64,000 nucleotides of DNA from an uncultured Candidatus Saccharibacteria bacterium (GTDB lineage: Bacteria; Patescibacteriota; Minisyncoccia; Phycocordibacterales; EsbW-18). The position numbers and the translations under genes were made by a program. Location: positions 7,048 to 71,047 of the forward strand of contig CAZFMQ010000001.1 in NCBI GenBank assembly GCA_964520295.1. The letters run 5' to 3'. Positions 41,524 to 54,545 of this stretch are shown here, piece by piece. Position 1 is the first letter of the stretch. Every line of letters begins with the position of its first letter. The notes beneath the pieces are model-generated. The model was not told the DNA's origin. It saw only the letters and a list, made by a program, of their open reading frames with translations, and did not search any database.

Positions 41524-43209
41524 GTGAATACAAGCAAGCAAGTTCTCATAGAGGCGGTACAGGCAGTGTGCGTAGAGCTCGGCTATCCCGAGGTGTCGTT
41601 TGTGATTGAGCGACCTGCCGATATGCAACATGGCGATTGGGCGTGCAACGTGGCACTGCTCCTTGCAAAGCATGTTGGTAAAAAGCCACGAGACATTGCC
41701 GAGACAATTGCAGGGGCATTGCGTGCTCGTTCGCTTCCACACATCGCGTCTATTGAAATCGCGGGCGCAGGTTTCATCAATGTGCGTTGCACACCTGCAT
41801 ATTTCAAAGAAGCACTCGCACGCACGCTCGCCAATACCACAGACATGACGAACCCTGCATTCGCGGGAAAAACAGTGATGGTGGAATACACACAACCAAA
41901 TCCATTCAAACCATTTCACATCGGACACTTGATGAGCAATACCATCGGCGAGACGATTGCGCGTGCGTATGCTGATGCGGGTGCAACAGTTATACGTGCA
42001 AACTATCAAGGTGATGTTGGTTTGCACGTTGCAAAAGCACTGTGGGGCATGATGCAAAAAAATGTAGATCCATCAGATATTGCAGGTATCGGTACGGCGT
42101 ACGCATATGGGCATGAGCAGTATGAGACCAATGAAACTGCGAAAGCAGAAATCATTGCACTGAACAAAAAAGTGTACGCGCGCGACGAAAGCATTATGGA
42201 TACGTACACCGCAGGGCGCACCGAGACGCTACAGGCATTTGAAAAAATTTACGCACTGCTTGGCACCACCTTTGACGAATACTTTTTTGAAAGCGAGGTG
42301 TGGGAGCAGGGTATGACACTCGTGCACGAGGGAGTGGAGAAGGGCATTTTTGAAAAGAGTGATGGCGCCATTGTGTTTCCGGGGGAGAAATATGGATTGC
42401 ACACACGTGTCTTCATTACACGCGAGGGTATTCCAACGTATGAAGCAAAAGAATTAGGGTTGTGTTTGGAAAAAACACAACGTCGCACCTTTGATGTTTC
42501 AGTGACCATCACCGCTGTGGAGCAAGAGCAGTACTTCAATGTGGTGTTCAAAGCATTTGAAGTGTTGCGTCCAGAGTTTGTAGGGAAGTTTCTACACGCG
42601 CACCACGGCATGATGGTGTTGCCATCAGGGAAAATGGGTTCGCGCAAAGGCAATGTCATCACCGGTGAATCACTTATTGATGACATGATTGCGCGTGCAA
42701 AAGAAAAAGTATCGGAGCGCGGCGTGTCTGATGCCGAGCAGATTGCACAGGATGTCGCTGTCGGTGCCATTAAGTACATGGTGCTCAAACAAGGTTTGGG
42801 TAAAAACATCACGTTTGATATTGAGAAGTCACTTTCATTTGAAGGAGACTCAGGACCATATCTGCAGTACACGTACACACGCGCCAATGCGGTATTGGAA
42901 AAAGCGCGTGACAACGGTATTGTACCTGCGCTCAATGAACAAACAGAAACGACTGATGTAGTGCGTCTCTGCGAGCGTTTTGCCGAAGTAGTGCGTGGTG
43001 CGCTTGAAAAACAGTACGCACCGAATGATCTCGTGCACTACCTCATTGCAGTGGCGTCGGCATTCAATAGTTGGTACGCACAAGAAAAAATCGTAGACAC
43101 CGACAATATGGATGTCTCTGCACACCGCACGGCGGTTACACAGGCGGTGGCATCCATCCTCTCGCACGGCCTGTCTCTGCTTGGCATCCCAACACCATCA
43201 AGAATGTAA
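41524..43209 (+). CDS. argS: Arginine--tRNA ligase
   Basis: HIGH-class I (PFHIGHLMSN); DALR anticodon-binding C-terminus. Confidence 0.85.
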   Translation: MNTSKQVLIEAVQAVCVELGYPEVSFVIERPADMQHGDWACNVALLLAKHVGKKPRDIAETIAGALRARSLPHIASIEIAGAGFINVRCTPAYFKEALARTLANTTDMTNPAFAGKTVMVEYTQPNPFKPFHIGHLMSNTIGETIARAYADAGATVIRANYQGDVGLHVAKALWGMMQKNVDPSDIAGIGTAYAYGHEQYETNETAKAEIIALNKKVYARDESIMDTYTAGRTETLQAFEKIYALLGTTFDEYFFESEVWEQGMTLVHEGVEKGIFEKSDGAIVFPGEKYGLHTRVFITREGIPTYEAKELGLCLEKTQRRTFDVSVTITAVEQEQYFNVVFKAFEVLRPEFVGKFLHAHHGMMVLPSGKMGSRKGNVITGESLIDDMIARAKEKVSERGVSDAEQIAQDVAVGAIKYMVLKQGLGKNITFDIEKSLSFEGDSGPYLQYTYTRANAVLEKARDNGIVPALNEQTETTDVVRLCERFAEVVRGALEKQYAPNDLVHYLIAVASAFNSWYAQEKIVDTDNMDVSAHRTAVTQAVASILSHGLSLLGIPTPSRM

Positions 43210-43255: not shown

Positions 43256-43675
43256 ATGGAGATGGACGCAACACCACGCAGAATGACAGAGGCGCCTTCA
43301 CGACGCGGGCGCGGCATCAAAAAAGTATTCTTTTTCCTCGTATTATGCGCACTTCTTGTCGCAGGTATCTGGTACTGGCTTTCATTGCCCGCAACTGGTT
43401 CATCTGAAGCAACTGCACGTCAAACAGAAAGTGCAGTAGAGCGTGTGTCTAAGGTGATGGTGTTACCACAGGACGAACAACCTGCAATCGGCACAATTAT
43501 TGATCCGTATAAATTCCAAGGAGGGGTATTTTTTGACGTAGTACAAATGGGGGATCTTGTGCTCATGTATCCCGAGCGCGGTATGCTCATTGTGTACAGT
43601 GCCGCACATAAAAAAATTGTAGGTGTTGCACCATTTGTCATGAATACACCGCCAGGCATCTCGGTTACCGAGTAA
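43256..43675 (+). CDS. Hypothetical membrane-anchored protein
   Basis: TM VFFFLVLCALLVAGIWYWL; short extracytoplasmic domain; ends 3 nt before the next gene. Confidence 0.35.
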   Translation: MEMDATPRRMTEAPSRRGRGIKKVFFFLVLCALLVAGIWYWLSLPATGSSEATARQTESAVERVSKVMVLPQDEQPAIGTIIDPYKFQGGVFFDVVQMGDLVLMYPERGMLIVYSAAHKKIVGVAPFVMNTPPGISVTE

Positions 43676-43677
43676 TC

Positions 43678-44916
43678 TTGCTTCTCAACAGGGTATGTAG
43701 CGAGTTTGCATACGTATTTTACAATAGAGTTACTGTGATCCCGCTGTCGTTATATTATTTGAAGATAGCATCTCTATCTGTTGCCATTGTGCTCGTGGCG
43801 ATAGCAATTTCTCCATTCATCATTCACAGTCAGGAGGGAGCAGAATCAGCAGAAGATTTTGTAGAAGAAGTGTCAGAAGAAATTGTTGAGGATGAAGTAC
43901 AGGAGGTACCAGCAGAACCAGAATCAGAGCCAGTTCCGGAAGAGCCCGAAGAAGAGCACACAGAGGAAGCCACCGATACAGAAGAGGTGGTTATTACTGA
44001 TGTCGGCAACGAAGCAACTACGACAGATGGTACAGAAGTGCTACACATTCCTTTTCCACAGGAGGAAGCAACCACAACTGCTTCAAGTAGTACTGAAACA
44101 TCAGAGAGCGCAACAAGCACCGCCTCCTCCACCGCATCAGACGTTGCAACAAGCACCGCATCTTCCACCGAATCAGACGTTGCGACGAGCACCGCGTCTT
44201 CATCAGAAACATTTTCAGAAGATCCATTTGCAACGTCAGTGGAATTGACGCCATTGACGGAAGCAGAAATAGCAACACCTGAAATACAACAAGACCTTGC
44301 ACAACTTGAAATATTTACAACGACCACCGACGCACTGCCAACAGATGATGCCACCACCACTGCGTCTACCACAGGGGATGAGTATCTAGAGATTGTATTG
44401 GAAGAATTGCCGCTTGAAGAGGAGATAGTGGAAGAAGAATATGTTTTGGCGCCACCATCACCAGAACCTCCACCACTGTATGAATCGCCATGGCAACGAT
44501 ATCTCAATAAGGTATTTGCGCTTGATGATGAGGCACGGCATACATGCACGTTTGAAAGTGATGTAAATCTTACTGAAGGTGGCACACAAGACGTAACGCT
44601 ATTGTTATCTAATCGAAACGGCTCTATGGGTGAGCTAGAAGTAGGGAATACACCTAATGGTGTGAGTGTGTTATTCAATGGTGAAGATAGTTATGTACAA
44701 TTTTGGTCAGCGGGACCAGAGACGCGATTGAGTATAGAAGTAAAACGTACGCTGTGGGCACAAGAGGGAATGTTCAATGTCCCTGTATTTTATACGAAAG
44801 GTTCATCTACCACTGTATGTCAGCTTATTATTATCAATGGTGTGTATCCGCAATCAGAGAGCGCCACGCAAGAGGTTCTTATTACCGATAGTGTCTCTGA
44901 AACGAAAGGAGAGTAG
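43678..44916 (+). CDS. Secreted/anchored surface protein: N-terminal TM, long acidic S/T-rich low-complexity stalk, C-terminal ~130-aa beta-rich domain
   Basis: TM IASLSVAIVLVAIAISPFII; EE/PE-rich; ATSTASSTASDV-type repeats; folded C-terminal domain. Confidence 0.45.
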   Translation: MLLNRVCSEFAYVFYNRVTVIPLSLYYLKIASLSVAIVLVAIAISPFIIHSQEGAESAEDFVEEVSEEIVEDEVQEVPAEPESEPVPEEPEEEHTEEATDTEEVVITDVGNEATTTDGTEVLHIPFPQEEATTTASSSTETSESATSTASSTASDVATSTASSTESDVATSTASSSETFSEDPFATSVELTPLTEAEIATPEIQQDLAQLEIFTTTTDALPTDDATTTASTTGDEYLEIVLEELPLEEEIVEEEYVLAPPSPEPPPLYESPWQRYLNKVFALDDEARHTCTFESDVNLTEGGTQDVTLLLSNRNGSMGELEVGNTPNGVSVLFNGEDSYVQFWSAGPETRLSIEVKRTLWAQEGMFNVPVFYTKGSSTTVCQLIIINGVYPQSESATQEVLITDSVSETKGE

Positions 44917-44922
44917 TACGAT

Positions 44923-47900
44923 ATGCAGTATAAGCGCATCATACAAAATAGTATGTTTATTGTGTACAGTGCGGTACTGGTATTTTTTGCGCTACCTGCA
45001 ATGGCCGCAACGTTTACGATGCAGACGGGATATTACGTAGGTGATGGTACAGATAATCGCGTTATCTCAGGACTTGGCATAACACCGAATGTGGTGTTTG
45101 TGAAAGATGATACCAATAATGGAGACGACGGTATTATTATGCGCACCAGTGCAATGGCCGGTGATTCATCTGCTAAACTGGCCGAAGCAGAAGCCAATGC
45201 CGCCGATCTCGTACAAGCACTTGCGTCAGGACAATTCACCATCGGTGCTGAGGCAGACATCAATGCAGTAGATCAAATGTATTACTGGACTGCGTTCGGT
45301 GGCAGTGATTGTACATCCACGGGTACGTTGTGTGTGGGTTCATATTTGGGCAGTGGTGATCTTTCACGCAATGTGAACGTGGGGTTTGCGCCCGATTTGG
45401 TGATTGTCAAACGAGCGGGCGCAACAGCAGGTGTGTGGACTTCATCGGCAATGCCCGCCAATACTACCGCTTTTTTCCATGGTGCCGCATCAAGTGCCGG
45501 TATCATCACGGCATTGGGTGCTACTCATTTTACAGTCAGTGCAAACGCAGCTGTTAATACTTTGGACAGTACATATTACTTTGTTGCATTCAAACAGGTT
45601 AGTGGCGCTATGGATGTGGGCACGTATACAGGGAACGGTAACGACAACAGAAATATAACATCATCTGATGACGCAGGGCTGACTTTTCAGCCGGACTTTG
45701 TGTGGGTCAAATCTTCAGCTGCTACTATAGCAGTACTTTCACAAACTGAACATTATGGTGATCGTACATACACAGCAGGAGACATATCATCTTTGTCAAA
45801 CAGCATACAAGAGTTACGTTCTGCTGGCGGTTTTCAGGTAGGAAATGAAACAACATATAACTCAGTTAATACAACAGGGAATACCTACTATTACGCGGCA
45901 TTCAACGGTGCGGTTGCAAAAAATCCTGCAAGCGAAACCTATACCATGAAATCCGGCTCATATACAGGTACCGGTTCGGGATTTTCTATTGGAGGTATTC
46001 CCTTTACACCCGACTTGGTCATTATTAAACACAATAATCAAGCAACTGATCAATACGCTGTTTTTCGTACAAGTCAGATGGGGGGCGATAACACATTGCA
46101 GTTTGCTACAGCAGCTTCTTTTACGGGTGGCATTACCTCATTGAATGCTAGTGGTTTCTCCGTTGGGACGGATGCTCGTGTTAATACTTCTGGTGATACA
46201 TACTACTGGACTGCATTTGGCAATGCCACGCGTCCTGACAAATCCGGTGGTGCAAATAATTTTGCAGTTGGTGCGTATATAGGCACGGGTGTAGATGGTT
46301 CTTCCGTAACGCGTCTCCCCATCGGTCCTGATTTATTGGTGGTAAAGCGCAGTGATAGTACAAACAATGGTGTATGGAGAACCAGTTCAGTGGCGGGTGA
46401 TTCATCTTTGTTTTTTCACAATGCAGCATCTGCGGCAAACTATATTCAGGCACTGACAAGTGATGGTTTTGAGCGCGGAAATAATGGATCAGTCAATACT
46501 GGTAGCGGTCGTTACAGTTATTTTGCATTTGCAGAGGGTGATGATTTTGTGCAGAACTCGTATACAGGTAATGGCAGTACGCAAAATATTGCTGCATACA
46601 ATTGGCAACCAGATATGGTATGGACGAAGAAAGGGACGGGAGGTACTGCGCGTGGTGGGTTATTACGTACGTCTGTAGTGAGTGGTGATGCATCATGGCC
46701 ATTTCTCAATCAAGCAACCCTTTCTAATGGTTTTACTAACCTACTCTCTGACGGTTTTTCATTAGGTTCATCGGTGGATGCCAATGAAAGCGGGTACACC
46801 TACTATTACGCGGTATGGGATGGTAAGAAGTATGGTCAATCAGGATTTCGTTTTTTTGAAAATACAGATAGCACAAGCGTGGGTACACCTCTTGCAAATG
46901 CAAATACGTCTGCAACACTGGGTGCTGTCGGTGATACATTTCGTCTTCGTATGTTGATGCACCTGACGGGAGGTAATTTATTACAAGGTAATGGTGGGTT
47001 CATATTGCAATACGCACAACCAAGCCCTTTTGATACTACTTGTAGTGGTCTGATGACATGGAATGACGTAGATACAGACACGGCAATTGCATTTTATGAT
47101 AACCCTAGTGCCACGGATGGTGCCGCACTGACAGCAACGAGTACTGATCCAACAAATGGTCTCTACACCATCGTCAATCAGAATTATCTAGAATCTCAAG
47201 GAAGTGGTTTTACCAATGGTATTGCTACCATCGCAGATATCCAAGATGGTAAATGGGATTTTTCGCTCGTGGACTACAGTGCTTCCGCCAAAACCACATA
47301 TTGTTTTCGTATGCGTCGCGCCGACACAGTATTATTTGAAGATTACACGGTACCGGCGGTGCGTATCACCACAGGAGCAACAGGAAGCCATGTGCCAACT
47401 GTCTCTAATGTATCTATTGATGAAGGGGCTCCGTCCATTACCTTGACTGAAGGTACGACCAAAAATGTGCAATGTACCGCAACAGCTACCGATACTGATG
47501 GGTATAGTGATATTACTGCTGTGACGGCGCACTTACACCAATCGTCAATCGATGTGAGTGCGCCCGCCGATGATAATCATCACTACATTGTTTCGGGCGA
47601 TTCGCAATGTGTACCGTCAAGTGGGTCAGGCAATTCCGAGGAATACACATGTACATTTGCGGTACAGTATTTTGCCAATCCAACGGATGCAGGTTCACCG
47701 AACGTGTTGGATGAGTGGGTGTGTTCTGTGTTTGCGTATGACGGTACATCCACCAGTACGGTGGCGACAGATACCACAGAGATAGATTCATTGATTGCGC
47801 TATCTGTTGATCCAGAAAGTATTGATTATAGTGAGGGTGGCCCACTGCTTCCTGAAGATATCTATGTACTTGTAAATAAAATGGATGTAGTCAACACAGG

Positions 47901-48183
47901 TAATCGGGACATTGACCCGCAGATTTCAGGCACACTTATGACAGGTGATGTACATAGTGGCACAATCGCGGTAGGGGAGCAGAAGTATGAAAATTTTGCT
48001 TTCGACTATGCCACTGAGGGCATCACACTGACGACCACGCCCACAACGATGGATTTGGCACTTCCACAGCGCACGGGTGGGGTAGTGTCAGATATACTCC
48101 ATTGGGGTATTCAAATTCCTTTGGGGACAATACCCGACACATACACAGGTGTAAATACACTGACTGCAGTGCCGGCGATATAA
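44923..48183 (+). CDS. Giant secreted protein (1086 aa): signal peptide, six tandem ~105-aa repeats, CARDB-like Ig domain, C-terminal LPQRT…WGI module
   Basis: Signal peptide VLVFFALPAMAA. Repeats share Y.G.G…F.PD.V.VK…W(R)TS.M.GD.S…GF.VG…VN…YY(Y/W).AF. C-terminus reads …VNKMDVVNTGNRDIDPQISGT…DLALPQRTGGVVSDILHWGIQIPLG. Confidence 0.6.
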   Translation: MQYKRIIQNSMFIVYSAVLVFFALPAMAATFTMQTGYYVGDGTDNRVISGLGITPNVVFVKDDTNNGDDGIIMRTSAMAGDSSAKLAEAEANAADLVQALASGQFTIGAEADINAVDQMYYWTAFGGSDCTSTGTLCVGSYLGSGDLSRNVNVGFAPDLVIVKRAGATAGVWTSSAMPANTTAFFHGAASSAGIITALGATHFTVSANAAVNTLDSTYYFVAFKQVSGAMDVGTYTGNGNDNRNITSSDDAGLTFQPDFVWVKSSAATIAVLSQTEHYGDRTYTAGDISSLSNSIQELRSAGGFQVGNETTYNSVNTTGNTYYYAAFNGAVAKNPASETYTMKSGSYTGTGSGFSIGGIPFTPDLVIIKHNNQATDQYAVFRTSQMGGDNTLQFATAASFTGGITSLNASGFSVGTDARVNTSGDTYYWTAFGNATRPDKSGGANNFAVGAYIGTGVDGSSVTRLPIGPDLLVVKRSDSTNNGVWRTSSVAGDSSLFFHNAASAANYIQALTSDGFERGNNGSVNTGSGRYSYFAFAEGDDFVQNSYTGNGSTQNIAAYNWQPDMVWTKKGTGGTARGGLLRTSVVSGDASWPFLNQATLSNGFTNLLSDGFSLGSSVDANESGYTYYYAVWDGKKYGQSGFRFFENTDSTSVGTPLANANTSATLGAVGDTFRLRMLMHLTGGNLLQGNGGFILQYAQPSPFDTTCSGLMTWNDVDTDTAIAFYDNPSATDGAALTATSTDPTNGLYTIVNQNYLESQGSGFTNGIATIADIQDGKWDFSLVDYSASAKTTYCFRMRRADTVLFEDYTVPAVRITTGATGSHVPTVSNVSIDEGAPSITLTEGTTKNVQCTATATDTDGYSDITAVTAHLHQSSIDVSAPADDNHHYIVSGDSQCVPSSGSGNSEEYTCTFAVQYFANPTDAGSPNVLDEWVCSVFAYDGTSTSTVATDTTEIDSLIALSVDPESIDYSEGGPLLPEDIYVLVNKMDVVNTGNRDIDPQISGTLMTGDVHSGTIAVGEQKYENFAFDYATEGITLTTTPTTMDLALPQRTGGVVSDILHWGIQIPLGTIPDTYTGVNTLTAVPAI

Positions 48184-48331
48184 TAACGCTACATAGCACG
48201 AGCAGTATTGTTGCCCTCTCATTATCCACAGCAGTACAACACGAGAAAACGGCATTTGCTATACTTTGCGTATGTCCAGTCCATGCTGATAGCGCGCTGG
48301 CCGTACTCTTATTCTGTTTCATAATCACCCC

Positions 48332-49216
48332 ATGAAAAAGACAGGGCTCATACTCGCTTCTTTGTTGCTCTCTACAGCATTTATTGTGTTTGCGGATGAT
48401 GTATCCACACAAGTGACTGTAGGTAACGCAACGCCATCAGCAACCAACCCCACGTTCAATGGGGGAGGTGCCATTACGCTTACTGAAAACACCACAACGA
48501 CGGTGTACGCTACCACCACAGTCACTGATACAAACGGGTGCGAAACAATTGTAGGAGTAACCATGGATTTTTATCGATCAGGTGTTGGCACGACATCATG
48601 TGACACCATTGGTGAAGCAGATGAAAACTATTGTTACCCACGTGTATCTTGTTCGGTCGCGGGCGGTTCATGTACTGGCCCTTCTGACACCAGTGCCGAT
48701 TATGTATGTTCTGTAGATTTGGAATACTATGCCGACCCTACTGACAGTGGTACATATGCTGCAGAAATCTGGAACGCAACAGTATATGCGGGTGATGGTA
48801 TTGCAACGACAACAGGTAACACGGGTACTGCTGAAGTAAACACACTTTTGGCGCTTGATGTAACAAGTTCAATCAACTACGGTACGCTCTCACCAAACAC
48901 TGATACGGGTGCTGATAATGCAACAACCACAGTGACAAATACCGGTAACGGTGCAATAGACCCAGAAGTTTCAGGTACCGACATGACTTCTGTTGGTGAC
49001 ACTATTACGGTTGGCTATCAAGAGTACGCAACCACCTCATTCACATATGGTGCGGGTACAGATCTTACTGGATCGGGTGTGCGTGCAGAAATTGATTTGC
49101 CACAACGAACTACGAGTGTGGTACAGGCACTGCTCTTGTGGGGTATCGGCATTCCCGCAGGTCAACCATCGGGTACATACACAGGTACCAACACATTTAC
49201 TGCCATTGCCGACTAG
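48332..49216 (+). CDS. Secreted 294-aa paralog of the C-terminal third of the giant protein
   Basis: Signal peptide MKKTGLILASLLLSTAFIVFADD. Aligns with 44923-48183 residues ~790-1086, including TVTNTGNGAIDPEVSGT and IDLPQRTTSVVQALLLWGIGIPAG. Confidence 0.6.
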   Translation: MKKTGLILASLLLSTAFIVFADDVSTQVTVGNATPSATNPTFNGGGAITLTENTTTTVYATTTVTDTNGCETIVGVTMDFYRSGVGTTSCDTIGEADENYCYPRVSCSVAGGSCTGPSDTSADYVCSVDLEYYADPTDSGTYAAEIWNATVYAGDGIATTTGNTGTAEVNTLLALDVTSSINYGTLSPNTDTGADNATTTVTNTGNGAIDPEVSGTDMTSVGDTITVGYQEYATTSFTYGAGTDLTGSGVRAEIDLPQRTTSVVQALLLWGIGIPAGQPSGTYTGTNTFTAIAD

Positions 49217-49241
49217 CATTACCTAAATATTTGCGACTGTC

Positions 49242-50186
49242 ATGAGCACTACACTTGTTAAATACAGCACAAAAATACTTCTCATGTGTGTGCTTGTGTG
49301 CGCGCCATTATTGACGCGTGCGGGATTTGGCGTCTCTCCAGGTCTTATTGAAGAATTACACCTTGTGCCAGGTACCCACATGGAAAAGACATTGTATCTC
49401 GTGCAGGGTGATCCAAAGCTAGATTTGCCTGCAACTGTTGCAGTTGAATCAGCAGATATTGCAAACTGGCTGACATTTCCTGATGGTACCTCGTTTATCA
49501 TTCCTGCTGGTGTACAGCAATATCCGTTACGCGTTGCATTTGATGTGCCGGTAGATGCACCTGTAGGTGACTATACTGCGTACATTCGTGTTACGACGCT
49601 TCCAAAACAAGATCCTGAAAATCAAATCACCATTGCACTCGGTGGACGCATTGACGTGCACCTTGTTGTTGGTACCGATATTGTAGTGGATTGGGATGTG
49701 CCACATATTGACGTGCTTGATGTAAAAGAGGGGGATGATCCAGAGGTGGTGCTGACAATTGATAACCGTGGTAATACGCAGGCAGGACCAGAGCGTGTAT
49801 CGTTTGATCTGTATAACAAGTATGGTGATGTGCGTTTGGGGTATGCAGAGACAGCGCAGGTATCCCGCGTACCATCGTTTACACGCAAGGCGCTTAAAGT
49901 AACATTTCCAATTGATATTCGTTTAGCGCCAGGGGAGTACTGGGGTCATGTGCGTGTGTATGGACGCGATGGTGTACTTGTACGCGAACTGAAAACACCA
50001 TTTGATGTAACGGTAAAGACCTTTGAAGAGAAGTATGGCGACCTCATTGTTGTCGGCGGTGCACTTCTTATCCTCTTGCTATGCATTGCGCTGGTTCGTT
50101 CAATTATTAAACACCGCCGCGCGCACAAGCAGTTGATGCATCATCAGCAGAACAACGTGCCACCACCGCCAATGCGCGTTTCCTAA
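49242..50186 (+). CDS. Signal-peptide protein with two predicted beta-sandwich domains, a C-terminal TM anchor and a basic tail. Topology resembles CscA/DUF916.
   Basis: Signal peptide ending LLTRAGFGVSPG. C-terminal TM LIVVGGALLILLLCIALV then RSIIKHRRAHK. Confidence 0.5.
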   Translation: MSTTLVKYSTKILLMCVLVCAPLLTRAGFGVSPGLIEELHLVPGTHMEKTLYLVQGDPKLDLPATVAVESADIANWLTFPDGTSFIIPAGVQQYPLRVAFDVPVDAPVGDYTAYIRVTTLPKQDPENQITIALGGRIDVHLVVGTDIVVDWDVPHIDVLDVKEGDDPEVVLTIDNRGNTQAGPERVSFDLYNKYGDVRLGYAETAQVSRVPSFTRKALKVTFPIDIRLAPGEYWGHVRVYGRDGVLVRELKTPFDVTVKTFEEKYGDLIVVGGALLILLLCIALVRSIIKHRRAHKQLMHHQQNNVPPPPMRVS

Positions 50187-50188
50187 GT

Positions 50189-51112
50189 ATGTTGTGGCGA
50201 CGTCTCCTCCTGTCGCTTATATGTATCGGCAGCGCAGCGCTCTGTAGCGCTACGGCGTTTGCCGACGATACCACCGTGACGGTGGAAGTCGTGATGCGTC
50301 AATGTTCAGATGGGATAGACAACGACGGCGATGCACTTATTGATTATCCTAATGATCCAGATTGTGATTCGCCAAATGATGACAGTGAAGGTGATGGAGT
50401 ACCACCCACTTCTGATGACGATGATGGTGGCGGTCGTGCATCATCATCGTATCGTCGTGGCACGCTGATACAATCGGCTATTCTATTTCGTGGAATAGCG
50501 CAACCGAACACATGGGTATTTGCATTTGAAGGTGATGACATGATTGGTATGGTGCAGGCTACAGTAGACGGCACATTCACGATGGGGCCAATAGCATTTT
50601 CTCCTGCACAAACGATATTTACGTTGTACGCATTTGACCCCGTGACAGGCACAACCACCACACATGCATTTCCGCTCACCATTCCTCGCTACTCAGTGGT
50701 AACCATAAGTGGCATTGCGCTGGGTATCGCACCTTTGGCGACAACAACCACAGCGACACTCCCGCCAATTTTATTTTTAGATGTTGTTGCCACTGACACA
50801 GCACACACAGAGTATCCAATACAATCACCCACAGAGAGTGTGCGTCCTGTACTCCCCACAGTTGTGACGCCCGATGCCGTGTATAGAGCATCATTGTTCG
50901 TAACGTCCGTGCGCGCACTTCTACAGACGCTCTATGATGGGTTCTTTGCGTGCCCAACACCGTACGACGTACGCGTCTTTTTAGCATCAGTGCAATTTTT
51001 GCAACCGTTGACACCGTTTATCCCATGCACCGTGTTGTGGTTTTCTGACCCGTTCTCGGCGCGTGTATTTGATGCTATAGTCGGTGTGTATGACAGCATC
51101 AGAAGGCGTTGA
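50189..51112 (+). CDS. Secreted protein with a MopE-like Cys/Asp metal-binding motif
   Basis: Signal peptide; CSDGIDNDGDALIDYPNDPDCDSPNDD (the C.DG.DND.D..ID…D.DC motif). Confidence 0.5.
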   Translation: MLWRRLLLSLICIGSAALCSATAFADDTTVTVEVVMRQCSDGIDNDGDALIDYPNDPDCDSPNDDSEGDGVPPTSDDDDGGGRASSSYRRGTLIQSAILFRGIAQPNTWVFAFEGDDMIGMVQATVDGTFTMGPIAFSPAQTIFTLYAFDPVTGTTTTHAFPLTIPRYSVVTISGIALGIAPLATTTTATLPPILFLDVVATDTAHTEYPIQSPTESVRPVLPTVVTPDAVYRASLFVTSVRALLQTLYDGFFACPTPYDVRVFLASVQFLQPLTPFIPCTVLWFSDPFSARVFDAIVGVYDSIRRR

Positions 51113-54100
51113 AAAAAGTGAACATGCGCTACGAGAGGAAGAGATTCTAGCGCAATGGAAAGAGCGAAATATCTTTGCAAAGACGTTGAAACAACCTGCA
51201 CCGCAGGGCGAGTTTACCTTTTATGAAGGCCCGCCAACAGCAAACGGACGTCCGGGTATTCACCACCTGATTTCGCGTATCTTCAAAGACGTTATTCCGC
51301 GCTACAAAACAATGCGTGGTTTCCACGTGCGTCGTAAGGCGGGGTGGGACACGCACGGTTTGCCTGTGGAGATTGCAGTAGAAAAATCACTCGGCCTCAC
51401 CTCAAAGAAACAAATTGAAGAGTACGGTATTGCGAAGTTCAATGAGCAGTGTAAAGAGGACGTGTGGAAATACATCAATGAGTGGCAAGAGTTTACGGAG
51501 CGCATCGGCTACTGGGTTGATCTCAATGATGCCTACATCACGTACTATCCGTCATATATAGAATCAGTATGGAACATTGTTGCGCACGTAGAGAAGCGCG
51601 GACTGCTGTATAAGGACTACAAAGTAGTCCCGTGGTGTCCGCGTTGTGGTACCGCACTCTCATCACACGAGCTTGCACAGGGATATCAGGATGTAAAAGA
51701 TTTATCTGTGTATGCGAAGTTTCGCGTGGTCGGGGAGGAGAATACTTTTTTGCTTGCATGGACAACGACACCATGGACACTTCCTGGTAACGTCGCGCTT
51801 GCCGTTGGTGCAGATATCGCGTATGTGAAAATCGCACAAGGCGGAGAGTTTCTTTGGTTGGCGCAAGAGCGCCTGTCGGTTGTGGAAGGGGAATATGAAA
51901 TTGTTGCAGGGGCGCGTGGTGCAGAGCTGGTAGGCATGTCGTATGAGCCTCTGTATCCGTTCTTGGGTGCACAGATTGCAGGAGCAGAAAAAGAGAAAAT
52001 GGAGAACGCATACAAGGTGTATCCGGCAGATTTTGTAACTACGGCAGATGGTACGGGTATCGTACACACAGCGGTGATGTACGGACAAGATGACTTTGAG
52101 CTCGGCAACCGCGTTGGATTGCCGAAGCACCACCTCGTTGGGGAAGATGGGCGCTTCATGTCAGGCACCGGTCTATTTGAAGGACGATTTGTGCGTGATG
52201 AAGATGTCGCAGTGGATGTGATAAAAGATTTGGCGGGTCGCGGACTGCTGTTTGCGAAAGAAAAATACGAACACACCTACCCGCACTGTTGGCGCTGTAA
52301 AACACCGCTTATCTACTACGCGCGCAATTCATGGTACATCCGTATGTCAGCACTCCGCGATGACCTCGTGCGTGAGAACAAAAAAATTAATTGGGTGCCA
52401 AGTCACATTCGCGACGGGCGTTTCGGTGAATGGCTTCGTGAAGTAAAGGATTGGGCAATATCGCGCGACCGCTACTGGGGTACGCCATTGCCTGCGTGGG
52501 AGTGTCAGTGTGGACACCGAGAAGTTATCGGTTCTATCGCGCACCTCAAAAAACTCACGCGCTCACGGGGCAATACATTCACGTTCGTGCGCCACGGAGA
52601 AGCAGAAAATAATGTACAAAACATTTCAAGCTCTGATGCCGATGCACCATTTCATCTTACGGAACGTGGCCGTGCACGCATCGCGCATGTTGCAAAAACA
52701 CTGACACGCAAGAAAGTATCTGCAGTGTACGCATCGCCATTTGTACGCACACAGGAGACAGCGCAGATTATTGCCGATGCGCTCGGAAAGAAGCATGACG
52801 ATATTATCACCGACAAACGATTGGGTGATTATGATTTCGGTGATTTTAGTGGTGGATCATATCATGATTTTCTTGCGTATGAAGGTGAGCACTTCACCAC
52901 GTATCGCGATCGTGCGCCGAATGGGGAAAGTTATGCAGATGCGCGTGCACGTTTTGCAGAGTTTCTCTATGACATAGATAGCAAACACGAACACGAGCAC
53001 ATCGTTGTCGTTTCGCACGGTATTTCATTGGAAGTCATCCCAGCAATTTTGGAAGGTATGGATGATACGCACGCAAAGCGTTTTATAGACAACATCAGCA
53101 CAAATCCGGGTGATACATTGTCATTTTCATTTGTACCAGTGCCACACAACGATGCACACGAGATTGATTTGCATAAACCATATATTGATGCAGTTGATTT
53201 GGTGTGCCCTGCATGTAGCAAAACGATGGCACGCACACCTGAGGTGATGGATGTGTGGTTTGATTCGGGTGCCATGCCGTTTGCGCAAGATCACTATCCA
53301 TTTGAAGGTGGTACGTATTTTTGGAATGCACAAAAACTTGCGTATCCTGCGCAGTATATTTCAGAAGCGATTGATCAAACACGAGGATGGTTTTACACAC
53401 TGCACGCAGTCGGTGCATTGATGGGGAAGGGTCGCGCGTATGAAAACGTGATTTGCTTAGGACACATTTTAGACGGTCAGGGTAAAAAAATGAGTAAGAG
53501 TTTGGGCAACATCATCAACCCATGGGAGGTTATGGCGAAGTATGGTGTTGATGTGGTGCGTTTTTGGATGTTCTCCATCAACCAGCCGGGTGATACAAAA
53601 AGTTTTGATGAGAAGACGGTTGATGAGGTACAAAAAAAGGTATTCAACATCGTGCGTAATGTCATGGCGTTTTATGCACTCTACGATGATGGTGCACCAT
53701 TGCCGAATGCGCGCAACAGCAAACATATTCTTGATACATGGATTTTGGCGCGCACCGATGCATTGGTGACGACGGTAACGCGCGAATTGGATGCATACCA
53801 CGCATTTGAATCTACCCGCGCAATTAAAGAGTTTGTTACCGATGTATCTACGTGGTACGTGCGCCGTTCTCGTGATCGTTTTCGCTCAGGTGGGGAGGAT
53901 GCGTTATATGCTCGTGCAACAACCCAGTATGTGTTGCAGGTGTTGGCAAAACTTCTTGCGCCGTTCACACCGTTTTTTGCAGAAGAGATATACCAAGCAA
54001 CGGGAGGCACTGCCGAAAGCGTGCACTTAGAAGCGTGGCCGGTTGCAGGCACAGTGTCGGGTGCGGAGACAGTATTGAAAGAAATGGAAGAGGCGCGCGA

Positions 54101-54545
54101 TGTGGTATCAAAAGCACTTGAAGCGCGCATGGGTGCGGGTATCAAAGTGCGCCAACCGCTCGCAACACTGACACTCTCACCACTGCACAAAGCATTGGCA
54201 CACAATGCTGAGTTGCTCGCGGTGATTGCAGATGAAGTAAACGTCAAAGCGGTAGTGGTTGCATCAGAAGAGCAAGGATTGGATGTGTCGCTGGATACAA
54301 CAATAACGCCTGCACTGGAGCAAGAGGGTGCTGTGCGTGAAATAATTCGTGCTATTCAAGATTTCAGAAAGACATCAGGATTACAGGCAACCGATACACC
54401 TGCATTGCACATCACCACATCAGAAACACAGAGCGCATTGATTGCAGAACATAAAGAAACACTACAGAAAGCAACGAATGTATCCGACATTATGGTTGCA
54501 ACAGGGGATACAGGTACAGAGCCGTTTGTGTTTTCATTGCGCTAA
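51090..54545 (+). CDS. ileS: Isoleucine--tRNA ligase carrying an inserted histidine-phosphatase (PGAM-like) domain
   Basis: HIGH (PGIHHL) and KMSKS present. About 195 aa inserted between ECQCGHREVIGSIAHLKKL and HKPYIDAVDLVCPACS, with FVRHGEAENN (RHGxxxxN), SPFVRTQETA and VVVSHGIS. Confidence 0.85.
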   Translation: MTASEGVEKSEHALREEEILAQWKERNIFAKTLKQPAPQGEFTFYEGPPTANGRPGIHHLISRIFKDVIPRYKTMRGFHVRRKAGWDTHGLPVEIAVEKSLGLTSKKQIEEYGIAKFNEQCKEDVWKYINEWQEFTERIGYWVDLNDAYITYYPSYIESVWNIVAHVEKRGLLYKDYKVVPWCPRCGTALSSHELAQGYQDVKDLSVYAKFRVVGEENTFLLAWTTTPWTLPGNVALAVGADIAYVKIAQGGEFLWLAQERLSVVEGEYEIVAGARGAELVGMSYEPLYPFLGAQIAGAEKEKMENAYKVYPADFVTTADGTGIVHTAVMYGQDDFELGNRVGLPKHHLVGEDGRFMSGTGLFEGRFVRDEDVAVDVIKDLAGRGLLFAKEKYEHTYPHCWRCKTPLIYYARNSWYIRMSALRDDLVRENKKINWVPSHIRDGRFGEWLREVKDWAISRDRYWGTPLPAWECQCGHREVIGSIAHLKKLTRSRGNTFTFVRHGEAENNVQNISSSDADAPFHLTERGRARIAHVAKTLTRKKVSAVYASPFVRTQETAQIIADALGKKHDDIITDKRLGDYDFGDFSGGSYHDFLAYEGEHFTTYRDRAPNGESYADARARFAEFLYDIDSKHEHEHIVVVSHGISLEVIPAILEGMDDTHAKRFIDNISTNPGDTLSFSFVPVPHNDAHEIDLHKPYIDAVDLVCPACSKTMARTPEVMDVWFDSGAMPFAQDHYPFEGGTYFWNAQKLAYPAQYISEAIDQTRGWFYTLHAVGALMGKGRAYENVICLGHILDGQGKKMSKSLGNIINPWEVMAKYGVDVVRFWMFSINQPGDTKSFDEKTVDEVQKKVFNIVRNVMAFYALYDDGAPLPNARNSKHILDTWILARTDALVTTVTRELDAYHAFESTRAIKEFVTDVSTWYVRRSRDRFRSGGEDALYARATTQYVLQVLAKLLAPFTPFFAEEIYQATGGTAESVHLEAWPVAGTVSGAETVLKEMEEARDVVSKALEARMGAGIKVRQPLATLTLSPLHKALAHNAELLAVIADEVNVKAVVVASEEQGLDVSLDTTITPALEQEGAVREIIRAIQDFRKTSGLQATDTPALHITTSETQSALIAEHKETLQKATNVSDIMVATGDTGTEPFVFSLR

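Follow-up and report, generated by a model that had tools for sequence, protein, structure and literature searches.

A WxL/Csc-like surface-protein cassette in Patescibacteria with a probable remote WxLIP homolog as membrane anchor

WxL/Csc clusters and the layout of the locus

The WxL/Csc clusters of Bacilli encode a small WxL protein, a large WxL protein and a WxLIP (DUF916-DUF3324-TM, corresponding to CscA), and the peptidoglycan-binding role proposed for them is largely predicted. An LPXTG protein and a sortase are frequent, though not essential, members. By the definition of Hassan, Chaudhuri and Williamson (2023), a WxL cluster is a group of adjacent genes that includes one or more for WxLIP and two or more for WxL proteins. 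The WxL domain is recognized as a C-terminal PF13731 domain with a pair of conserved Trp-x-Leu motifs, which are spaced 68-106 residues apart and lie on adjacent antiparallel strands of a beta-sandwich. The commonest cluster type combines one WxLIP with two WxL proteins (98 of 179 clusters; PMC10599100), and more than 91% of WxL proteins are found in Firmicutes. The system has been linked to adhesion, predictions have WxLIP donating a strand that completes the WxL sandwich, and the first WxLIP domain carries a conserved N-terminal signature, NQIDKxxxYFDLK (PMC10599100).

In the window analysed here (the whole 64-kb stretch of DNA), the list of open reading frames places six plus-strand genes, P1 to P6, between ArgRS and IleRS at positions 43256-51112 (Table 1). 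Successive gaps measure 2, 6, 148, 25 and 2 nt, and IleRS, if read from its listed GTG start, shares 29 nt with P6. All six products carry an N-terminal hydrophobic segment, in agreement with the original prediction of a tightly packed surface-protein operon whose products all bear signal peptides or TM anchors. Its placement in a CPR genome is likewise supported, because the homologs come from Patescibacteria sources. As had also been predicted, the six proteins lack a canonical WxL motif, with no W-x-L tripeptide anywhere in them. A C-terminal LPXTG sorting signal was found in none of the six, the sole LPATG being at aa 44 of P1 beside its N-terminal TM segment, and no TLxTC sortase motif was found among the window's open reading frames.

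Table 1 Positions of the cassette genes, selected protein regions and flanking genes in the window
Feature	Position	Strand	Length	Description
ArgRS	41524-43209			flank of the cluster
P1	43256-43675	+	139 aa	small membrane protein, TM aa 18-47
P2	43678-44916	+	412 aa	TTG start, pI 4.1
P3 (Large)	44923-48183	+	1086 aa	signal peptide, variable adhesin-like N-terminus, shared C-terminal module
P3 aa ~30-640	45010-46842	+		six DUF7483 repeats of ~100 aa each, starting G-x-Y-x-G-x-G
P3 aa ~641-820	46843-47382	+		middle beta-rich domain with 'FRLR' motif
P3 aa 821-1086	47383-48180	+		C-terminal two-domain module in common with P4, ending WGIxIP...YTGxNTxTA
P4 (Small)	48332-49216	+	294 aa	signal peptide and shared module only; pI 4.1, 6 Cys
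P5	49242-50186	+	314 aa	WxLIP-like membrane anchor
P6	50189-51112	+	307 aa	secreted, signal peptide; homologs at the equivalent position in all loci
P6 aa 38-61	50300-50371	+		acidic double-disulfide Cys/Asp repeat
IleRS	51084-54545			flank of the cluster

The architectural parallel with WxL/Csc loci that had been proposed holds. Both systems pair a large and a small secreted paralog with a common C-terminal module, the large one bearing N-terminal adhesin-type domains, and in both an adjoining gene encodes a protein made up of signal peptide, Ig, Ig, TM helix and basic tail. The order Large, Small, anchor is that of the Listeria, Anaerocolumna and Carnobacterium loci, and each complete locus that we compared has exactly one Large and one Small beside one P5, which matches the commonest WxL cluster type. 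Several features set the cassette apart: its shared module is a pair of Ig-like domains of about 265 aa with neither a WxL domain nor the dual W-x-L motif, it has no LPXTG protein or sortase, and a Cys/Asp-repeat protein is a constant extra member, joined in most genomes by a cohesin-dockerin pair. Its hosts are ultra-small Patescibacteria, whereas WxL proteins occur mainly in Firmicutes.

The core order Large-Small-P5-P6, on one strand and tightly spaced, is found again in every one of the 32 further Patescibacteria loci examined, which were sampled from Paceibacterota, Lloydbacteria, Jorgensenbacteria, Spechtbacteria, Microgenomates-type and other Patescibacteria MAGs and whose P5 proteins are 34-66% identical to the window copy. 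The conservation of gene order in relatives, put forward as a check on the original prediction, thus applies to these four genes, and the conserved unit is Large, Small, P5 and P6. P1 gave no match in Pfam or NCBIfam searches and no homolog of it was found in seven compared loci. P2 has an N-terminal TM segment, a low-complexity stalk that is acidic and rich in Ser/Thr/Glu, and a globular domain at its C-terminus (aa ~267-387), the last being 29% identical to a 201-aa protein at the equivalent position in the closest relative, L011 (E=5e-19), and absent from the other loci compared. By their sequence distribution, P1 and P2 are lineage-specific add-ons outside the conserved unit; the acidic S/T-rich stalk protein described in the original prediction does exist, but its membership of that unit is contradicted by its recurrence in L011 only.

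The membrane anchor P5 and its relationship to WxLIP

P5 consists of a signal peptide (aa 1-26), two Ig domains (D1, aa 27-146; D2, aa 147-258), a TM helix (aa 263-292) and a basic tail, and its AlphaFold2 model, with two Ig domains and a TM helix (mean pLDDT 93), confirms the expected two-Ig protein with a C-terminal TM anchor. A Foldseek search with this model placed WxLIP structures at ranks 2-4, and WxLIP was in the top three structural matches by two independent methods, with PapD-like chaperones and ASH domains reaching structural scores nearly equal to those of WxLIP. Among PDB entries, WxLIP is the nearest structural counterpart of P5. With signal peptide and TM helix removed, hhalign comparison of the ectodomains of 132 P5 relatives and 125 WxLIPs yielded a probability of 81.6% (P=1.1e-5) over 192 collinear columns. 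Taken by domain, D1 matched DUF916 (P=3e-5) and D2 matched DUF3324 (P=3.8e-4), while the cross-domain controls gave P=0.14 and 0.085; the signal rose with deeper profiles. A higher full-length score of 96.5% was rejected as an artefact because it was driven by the signal peptide and TM helix.

Profile searches in the P5-to-WxLIP direction pointed to the same regions, the D1 HMM matching WxLIPs at aa ~52-129 (136 at P<1e-3 versus 0 in the reversed control) and the D2 HMM at aa ~200-284 (105 versus 8). Curated families were less responsive: Pfam WxLIP_HBD (PF11797) was matched by 6 of the 132 more distant relatives (best E=3.5e-5), the window P5 itself matched neither DUF916 (PF06030) nor DUF3324 (PF11797) at E<=1, neither family was among the 25 most frequent at E<=10 for the 36 closest relatives, and PF06030 was not among the 25 most frequent for all 132. 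The protein is also ~40 aa shorter than WxLIP and lacks the NQIDKxxxYFDLK signature; a segment of ~11 residues containing NQIDK is missing, the P5 family consensus in this region reads AGFG(V/I)SPPxIxxxxLxPG, and the hhalign alignment begins just past the signature. The suggestion that the anchor is DUF916-like therefore stands as a remote likeness in profile and structure and fails at the Pfam thresholds for DUF916 and DUF3324.

An alternative is that P5 is a generic E-set/CARDB-type two-Ig membrane protein and that the layout of the cassette arose independently of WxL clusters. Weak matches of the 132 relatives to other families (GH123_N_2, 52; CARDB, 30; NPCBM_assoc, 20; compared with WxLIP_HBD, 6) are consistent with this view, as are a partner module that is not WxL and a D1-to-DUF916 HMMER signal whose reversed control was noisy in one direction. 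We consider convergence unlikely nonetheless, given that the P5-WxLIP similarity is collinear over both domains with their order kept, that cross-domain controls fail, that the HMM matches fall in the expected WxLIP regions far above reversed controls, that structural searches by two methods rank WxLIP so highly, and that the two proteins are alike in the arrangement of signal peptide, Ig domains, TM helix and basic tail and in neighbourhood logic. P5 is thus best described as a probable remote homolog of WxLIP (DUF916-DUF3324), at an hhalign probability (82%) that is below 95% and with other E-set families also matching weakly. One P5 subfamily has TM-TM-SH3b in place of the simple anchor. 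Bacterial SH3 domains are usually wall-binding modules, and these SH3b domains therefore fit an envelope-anchoring role.

Large, Small and their shared module

The multi-repeat character predicted for the 1086-aa P3 was borne out, with six DUF7483 repeats whose starts were read off the sequence. Pfam DUF7483 (PF24299) scored 96.6 bits against a cutoff of 27 (E=2e-27), with four stretches above cutoff, and the repeats also matched the PHROG family phrog_24898, 'tail fiber protein', in five stretches (E=5e-31) and a PHROG virion structural protein family (E=1e-20). The middle domain, partly covered by phrog_19943, had no match in a Pfam search and aligned with aa 40-220 of the Large protein of L002 and aa 126-275 of that of L013. 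Between loci, Large N-termini differ strongly (466-1973 aa, mostly without a Pfam match) and the C-terminal module stays constant, a combination of variable N-terminus and constant C-terminal module that is typical of adhesins. The DUF7483 repeats are described as the putative ligand- or host-binding part of P3.

The shared module has two domains. In P4 numbering, aa ~25-165 form an Ig domain of cadherin-like type that contains a Cys-rich insert, and aa ~166-294 form a beta-sandwich at the C-terminus. The P4-family HMM matched the C-terminal module of P3 at E=3e-68, and direct alignment of P3 aa 821-1083 with P4 aa 31-292 gave about 40% identity (E=2e-26 to 6e-38), so P4 corresponds to the last ~265 residues of P3 and is, as had been described, a paralog carrying only the C-terminal module. 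No WxL domain was detectable in this module by sequence. Pfam WxL (PF13731) matched neither P3 nor P4 at E<=1 and none of 49 P4-family members at E<=10, hhalign of the P4 family (whole, N-domain or C-domain) against 14 small and 7 large WxL domains gave P>=0.09 while the positive control, small versus large WxL, reached 97%, and HMMER comparison of the P4 family with WxL did no better than the reversed-sequence control in either direction. The original idea that the module might be a very remote WxL counterpart thus found no detectable similarity by sequence, and the WxL analogy therefore rests on architecture and one homologous component.

The paralog pair also bears on other readings of the cassette. 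Small could be an abundant acidic subunit of an S-layer-like lattice held by P5, with Large and P6 as minor components and a function in envelope integrity rather than host binding. It is short, very acidic (pI 4.1) and Thr/Ser-rich with two Ig domains, like many S-layer subunits, the 148-nt gap before its gene could hold a promoter of its own, and the cassette sits between housekeeping genes with synteny conserved in some lineages. Yet no specific similarity to any S-layer family was found, the hypervariable Large N-terminus with its tail-fibre-like repeats argues for ligand recognition, and the nearest homologous system, WxL/WxLIP, has been linked to adhesion in the literature. We regard a purely structural layer as improbable.

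We assign a low likelihood, too, to a fibre or pilus built by donor-strand complementation, in which P5 would act as a membrane-tethered PapD-like chaperone or platform, Small as the polymerizing major subunit and Large as the tip adhesin of a monoderm, usher-less analogue of chaperone-usher systems. A small and a large paralog do resemble a major subunit and tip adhesin, and because WxLIP itself is predicted to donate a strand to the WxL sandwich (PMC10599100), the principle is close to that of WxLIP-WxL. However, sequence profiles pick WxLIP, and neither PapD_N nor PapD_C is among the 25 most frequent Pfam matches of the 132 P5 family members. Both P4 domains are modelled as complete sandwiches (pLDDT 86), the conserved stretch at the P4 N-terminus looks like a cadherin-like A-strand instead of a free donor strand, and the cassette has no usher-like or polymerase-like gene. 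Unlike PapD-like chaperones (FimC, Caf1M, CsuC) and ASH/MSP-type Ig domains, P5 has a C-terminal helix as its membrane anchor and belongs to a cell that presumably has no outer membrane.

Although P3 aa 30-640 matches both DUF7483 and the PHROG tail-fibre and virion families, the idea that the two tRNA synthetase genes flank a prophage or an inserted tail-fibre module of phage origin is effectively refuted: a search of 2.9 million viral contigs turned up no P5 relatives, the P3 N-terminus had no tblastn match in 50,697 phage genomes, the repeats belong to a protein that also carries a cellular surface-anchoring module, both flanking genes are housekeeping genes whose synteny is kept in some lineages, no GC anomaly was seen, and the cassette, free of other phage genes, lies in 33 cellular loci.

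P6, the cohesin-dockerin pair and a model of surface display

In P6 the Cys/Asp repeat is followed by a Gly/Asp linker and then by an Ig-like domain (aa ~90-180), and the C-terminus is lineage-specific. The motif, CSDGIDNDGDALIDYPNDPDC, matches the NCBIfam 'acidic double-disulfide repeat' (NF033662) at profile positions 6-28 of 32 (E=3e-5) as a single repeat, at 23.7 bits against a curated cutoff of 41; relatives of P6 have one or two copies. The MopE-like Cys/Asp protein of the original prediction is therefore upheld in its Cys/Asp motif, at this below-cutoff score, and not in its family, as Pfam MopE (PF11617) did not match P6 at E<=1.

Most related loci carry two extra membrane-anchored cohesin proteins, D and E (signal peptide, cohesin, Ig, TM), encoded by the next two genes after P6, and a P6 that ends in a dockerin. 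Cohesin PF00963 was assigned in the E protein of L018 (32.2 bits versus a cutoff of 24.1) and dockerin PF00404 in the P6 of L002 (26.9 bits versus 22.9). Of 24 loci with D/E, 19 had the dockerin motif, as against none of the four complete loci that lack these genes. The P6 of the window is without a dockerin motif, and homologs of D and E are absent from the entire 64 kb. As in non-cellulosomal cohesin-dockerin pairs, a type-I dockerin-like duplicated Ca-binding motif in P6 co-occurs with cohesin proteins in most relatives; the cassette differs in that no enzymes are attached, in its surface-display rather than polysaccharide-degrading context and, for the window, in lacking both the dockerin and the cohesin genes.

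The explanation we favour, and consider reasonably likely, is that the cassette is a Sec-exported surface-display system, widespread in Patescibacteria, that works like the Firmicute WxL/Csc cluster. The C-terminal helix and basic tail of P5 would fix it to the cytoplasmic membrane, leaving two WxLIP-like Ig domains exposed. Large and Small would be secreted and kept at the surface through their common two-domain C-terminal module, for which P5 is the most likely binding partner; the contact might involve beta-strand augmentation, as it does in the WxLIP-WxL complex. Large would then project its variable N-terminus outward for ligand or host binding, in the window as six tail-fibre-like DUF7483 repeats. 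P6 would be the fourth constant component, docked in most genomes via its dockerin onto the cohesin proteins D and E, and the window lineage would have lost both this dockerin and the two cohesin genes.

Taken this way, the cassette looks like an undescribed cousin of the WxL surface adhesion system, its anchor being homologous and its docking module different. More tentatively, and with some doubt on our part, it may represent an attachment apparatus found across the phylum Patescibacteria and, in evolutionary terms, a sister of WxL clusters, one in which a WxLIP-type anchor is combined with a novel docking module of two Ig domains and, in the ancestral form, with a cohesin-dockerin scaffold. 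Its hypervariable receptor-binding heads would draw on a repeat pool shared with phage tail fibres, and the apparatus might be the main determinant of host recognition by these episymbionts.

Gene order and conservation of the cassette

Six ORFs, P1 to P6, lie between ArgRS and IleRS in the window, separated by gaps of 2, 6, 148, 25 and 2 nt and with nothing unusual in base composition. All six products have a hydrophobic N-terminal segment, four are strongly acidic (P2, P3, P4 and P6; pI 4.1–4.3), and P5 ends in a TM helix (aa 263–292) followed by a basic tail. The C-terminal ~265 residues of P3 (Large) are paralogous to P4 (Small), with ~40% identity and E down to 6e-38. Spacing, hydrophobic N-termini and P3/P4 paralogy were thus all recovered, and the surface-protein operon described in the original prediction is accurate in these respects. 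P1 also contains LPATG (aa 44–48) immediately behind its N-terminal TM helix. A sortase sorting signal would lie at the opposite end; the pentapeptide is probably a coincidence, and a search of the window gave no sortase motif. Downstream, IleRS holds a histidine-phosphatase domain (PF00300, aa 500–672, E = 7e-35) inside its class-I catalytic core, an inserted-domain architecture also on record for the IleRS of two related loci, L011 and L012.

Features of the cassette and its flanks in the window
Feature	Position	Strand	Description
ArgRS	41524-43209	+	flank, upstream of P1
P1	43256-43675	+	ORF
P2	43678-44916	+	ORF
P3	44923-48183	+	ORF (Large)
P4	48332-49216	+	ORF (Small)
P5	49242-50186	+	ORF
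P6	50189-51112	+	ORF
IleRS	51084-54545	+	directly downstream, 1153 aa

Related loci in Patescibacteria brought the total to 33 (the window, 8 reached by exact-protein look-ups and 24 found in a set with one genome for each GTDB species), and their ORFs were scored with family HMMs. In every locus where the contig permits, the order Large–Small–P5–P6 is found on one strand, with one Large and one Small and no more, and P5 is 34% to 66% identical to the window copy. The position between ArgRS and IleRS is also found in two lineages. Homologs of P5 and P4 came exclusively from Patescibacteria-type metagenome bins, and those found carried no Pfam annotation. P1 has no counterpart in the other loci and the C-terminal domain of P2 recurs solely in the closest relative; the conserved core here therefore comprises four genes, with P1 and P2 as lineage-specific additions. 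Gene order, which the original prediction had singled out for checking, is kept in relatives, while the proposed five- or six-gene unit holds for its four-gene core and loses P1 and P2.

Most related loci also carry two extra genes beyond P6, D and E, whose products combine a signal peptide, a cohesin-like domain, an Ig domain and a C-terminal TM helix. The cohesin and dockerin assignments are supported by an E product above the Pfam cohesin cutoff (L018), a weak but nearly full-length cohesin match for a D product (L001) and a P6 above the dockerin cutoff (L002). Among L001, L002, L012–L014 and L018–L041, most cassettes have both D/E and a P6 dockerin; of 24 loci with D/E, 19 have a P6 that terminates in a dockerin-type motif, against 0 of 4 complete loci without D/E. 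Four complete loci, the window's among them, are missing D, E and the P6 dockerin together: no D or E homologs were found in the window's entire 64 kb, and its P6, which has one acidic double-disulfide repeat (under the NCBIfam cutoff) and then an Ig-like domain, contains no dockerin. This joint absence argues that the window holds a reduced form of an ancestrally six-gene cassette.

P5 and the WxL-interacting anchor proteins

An AlphaFold2 model of P5 based on 36 relatives (pLDDT 93) predicts a signal helix, two beta-sandwich domains (D1 and D2) and a long C-terminal helix. Fold comparisons were made against PDB libraries; the sequences of P3, P4 and P5 and the P5 profile gave no significant match to the PDB. 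In a Foldseek search of the whole PDB with P5, three chains of WxLIP, the WxL-interacting anchor protein of Firmicutes (DUF916–DUF3324–TM), occupied ranks 2–4 (including 9i25_C), with E ~1e-9 over 254–276 columns. FimC-type chaperones followed at E ~1e-8. A less likely reading of the cassette is chaperone-type fibre assembly. Across the P5 family (2075 clusters at 50% identity, E ≤ 1e-3), the C-terminal TM helix is kept in 138 of 148 representatives, and one subfamily (P0215, P0226, P0247, P0262 and about 20 others) has a TM hairpin after the Ig domains and then a C-terminal bacterial SH3b domain. Bacterial SH3 domains are typical wall-binding domains; this one would be located outside the cell, and the variant fits an envelope-anchoring role for P5.

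WxL clusters for comparison were seeded by peptides in the supplement of PMC10599100, followed by tblastn against plasmids, and a profile search from these clusters yielded 120 WxLIPs. Full-length hhalign of P5 against WxLIP scored 96.5%, a value we discarded because signal peptide and TM helix had raised it: trimming the same shallow alignments to their ectodomains dropped the score to only 2%. Ectodomain matches strengthened with profile depth (P = 0.023, then 6e-5, then 1.1e-5), the deepest reaching a probability of 81.6% over 192 collinear columns. By domain, D1 matched DUF916 (P = 3e-5) and D2 matched DUF3324 (P = 3.8e-4), compared with P = 0.14 and 0.085 in cross-domain controls. Run on 125 WxLIPs, the D1 HMM gave 136 matches at P < 1e-3 (aa ~52–129; reversed control, 0) and the D2 HMM 105 (aa ~200–284; reversed control, 8), both at the positions expected in WxLIP.

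Pfam WxLIP_HBD directly matched 6 of 132 distant P5 relatives, and P5 relatives also gave weak matches to CARDB and other E-set models. The window P5 is below Pfam thresholds for WxLIP domains and does not contain the WxLIP signature NQIDKxxxYFDLK. Overall, P5 is very likely a remote WxLIP homolog, one that lies outside the Pfam-defined family. An intermediate locus pairing P5 with WxL was considered in L042, among the best WxLIP scorers, and rejected, as it has a P4-type Large and Small. The resemblance to WxL clusters may also reflect convergence alone, a reading to be set against the ectodomain and single-domain profile matches of P5.

The module common to Large and Small

The P4 model (pLDDT 86) predicts two beta-sandwich domains. 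The conserved N-terminal sequence, VGNAxP...ITLTEN...VTDxNG, suggests a cadherin-type Ig domain carrying a Cys-rich insert, and the C-terminal domain finishes in WG(I/L)xIP...YTGTNTFTA. Pfam WxL matched 0 of 49 P4-family members, hhalign of the P4 family with WxL alignments (small, large and both combined) gave P ≥ 0.09 (positive control, small versus large WxL: 97%), and HMMER searches between the P4 family and WxL in both directions were the same as reversed controls. A by-eye alignment of the P4/P3 module with WxL paired LxLDxxSxIxYG with LSIDxxSSLxFG, VTNTGN with VxDxRGT and YTGTNTFTA with YxxxLTWxL; it was absent in hhalign local, low-mact and global modes and unsupported by HMMER against reversed controls, and we treat the likeness as generic beta-sandwich patterning. 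All tests of the suggested WxL similarity were negative, and by these profile comparisons the module does not appear to be a WxL domain. The Large of L013 (6024–8945) carries it mid-protein (aa ~275–500 of 973) instead of at the C-terminus, so the module need not always be terminal.

The N-terminus of P3 consists of six repeats of ~100 aa that score above the Pfam DUF7483 cutoff, a family for which our literature search turned up no paper. Despite their match to a PHROG tail-fibre family (E = 5e-31), origin of the cassette as a phage module is effectively excluded. Large N-termini elsewhere are very diverse, mostly without a Pfam match. Between P3 and P4, the sole long gap in the cluster (48184–48331; in relatives, Small is preceded by comparable spacers, 46–128 nt long) might carry an internal promoter raising Small expression; it contained no significant RNA structure (z = −1.15), no terminator and, in a promoter scan, fewer sites than shuffled controls.

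A model for surface display

Compared with WxL/Csc clusters, the cassette would have one homologous component in common and a similar mode of working, but we do not file it among them because the two WxL-domain proteins that define such clusters are missing. By analogy with the WxLIP–WxL complex, which has been predicted with AlphaFold (PMC10599100) and deposited as a crystal structure (9i25), we infer that membrane-anchored P5 would retain Small and Large at the surface via their common module. Large would display a variable ligand-binding head and, where present, D and E would hold P6. The same proteins may alternatively form an S-layer-like lattice. Natural templates for testing the cassette are 9i1y and 9i25, crystal structures of Enterococcus faecium WxLIP alone and with a long WxL domain (released 2026-01-28), for which we found no paper; a large-WxL profile matched 9i25_A in the PDB, and a small WxL query matched no solved structure.

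Literature searches combining CPR or Patescibacteria with WxL, DUF916, cohesin or dockerin found no paper on such a cassette, and none tying this phylum to WxL or WxLIP. Patescibacteria (CPR) are believed to spend their lives attached to other cells; to our knowledge, the attachment molecules are mostly unknown outside Saccharibacteria, and most CPR surface proteins that we know of have no annotation. As a gene set the cassette is large and orderly, and the WxLIP link offers a testable model of anchor, docking module and variable head. A WxLIP-type anchor would, by this analogy, reach beyond Bacilli and work with a non-WxL partner, a point that also concerns recognition by the anchor in Firmicute systems. 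As candidate determinants of host specificity, the variable Large N-termini could be mined across MAGs. Together, these results provide a concrete model, with its functions inferred, of how this little-understood phylum may display surface proteins and perhaps attach to hosts.
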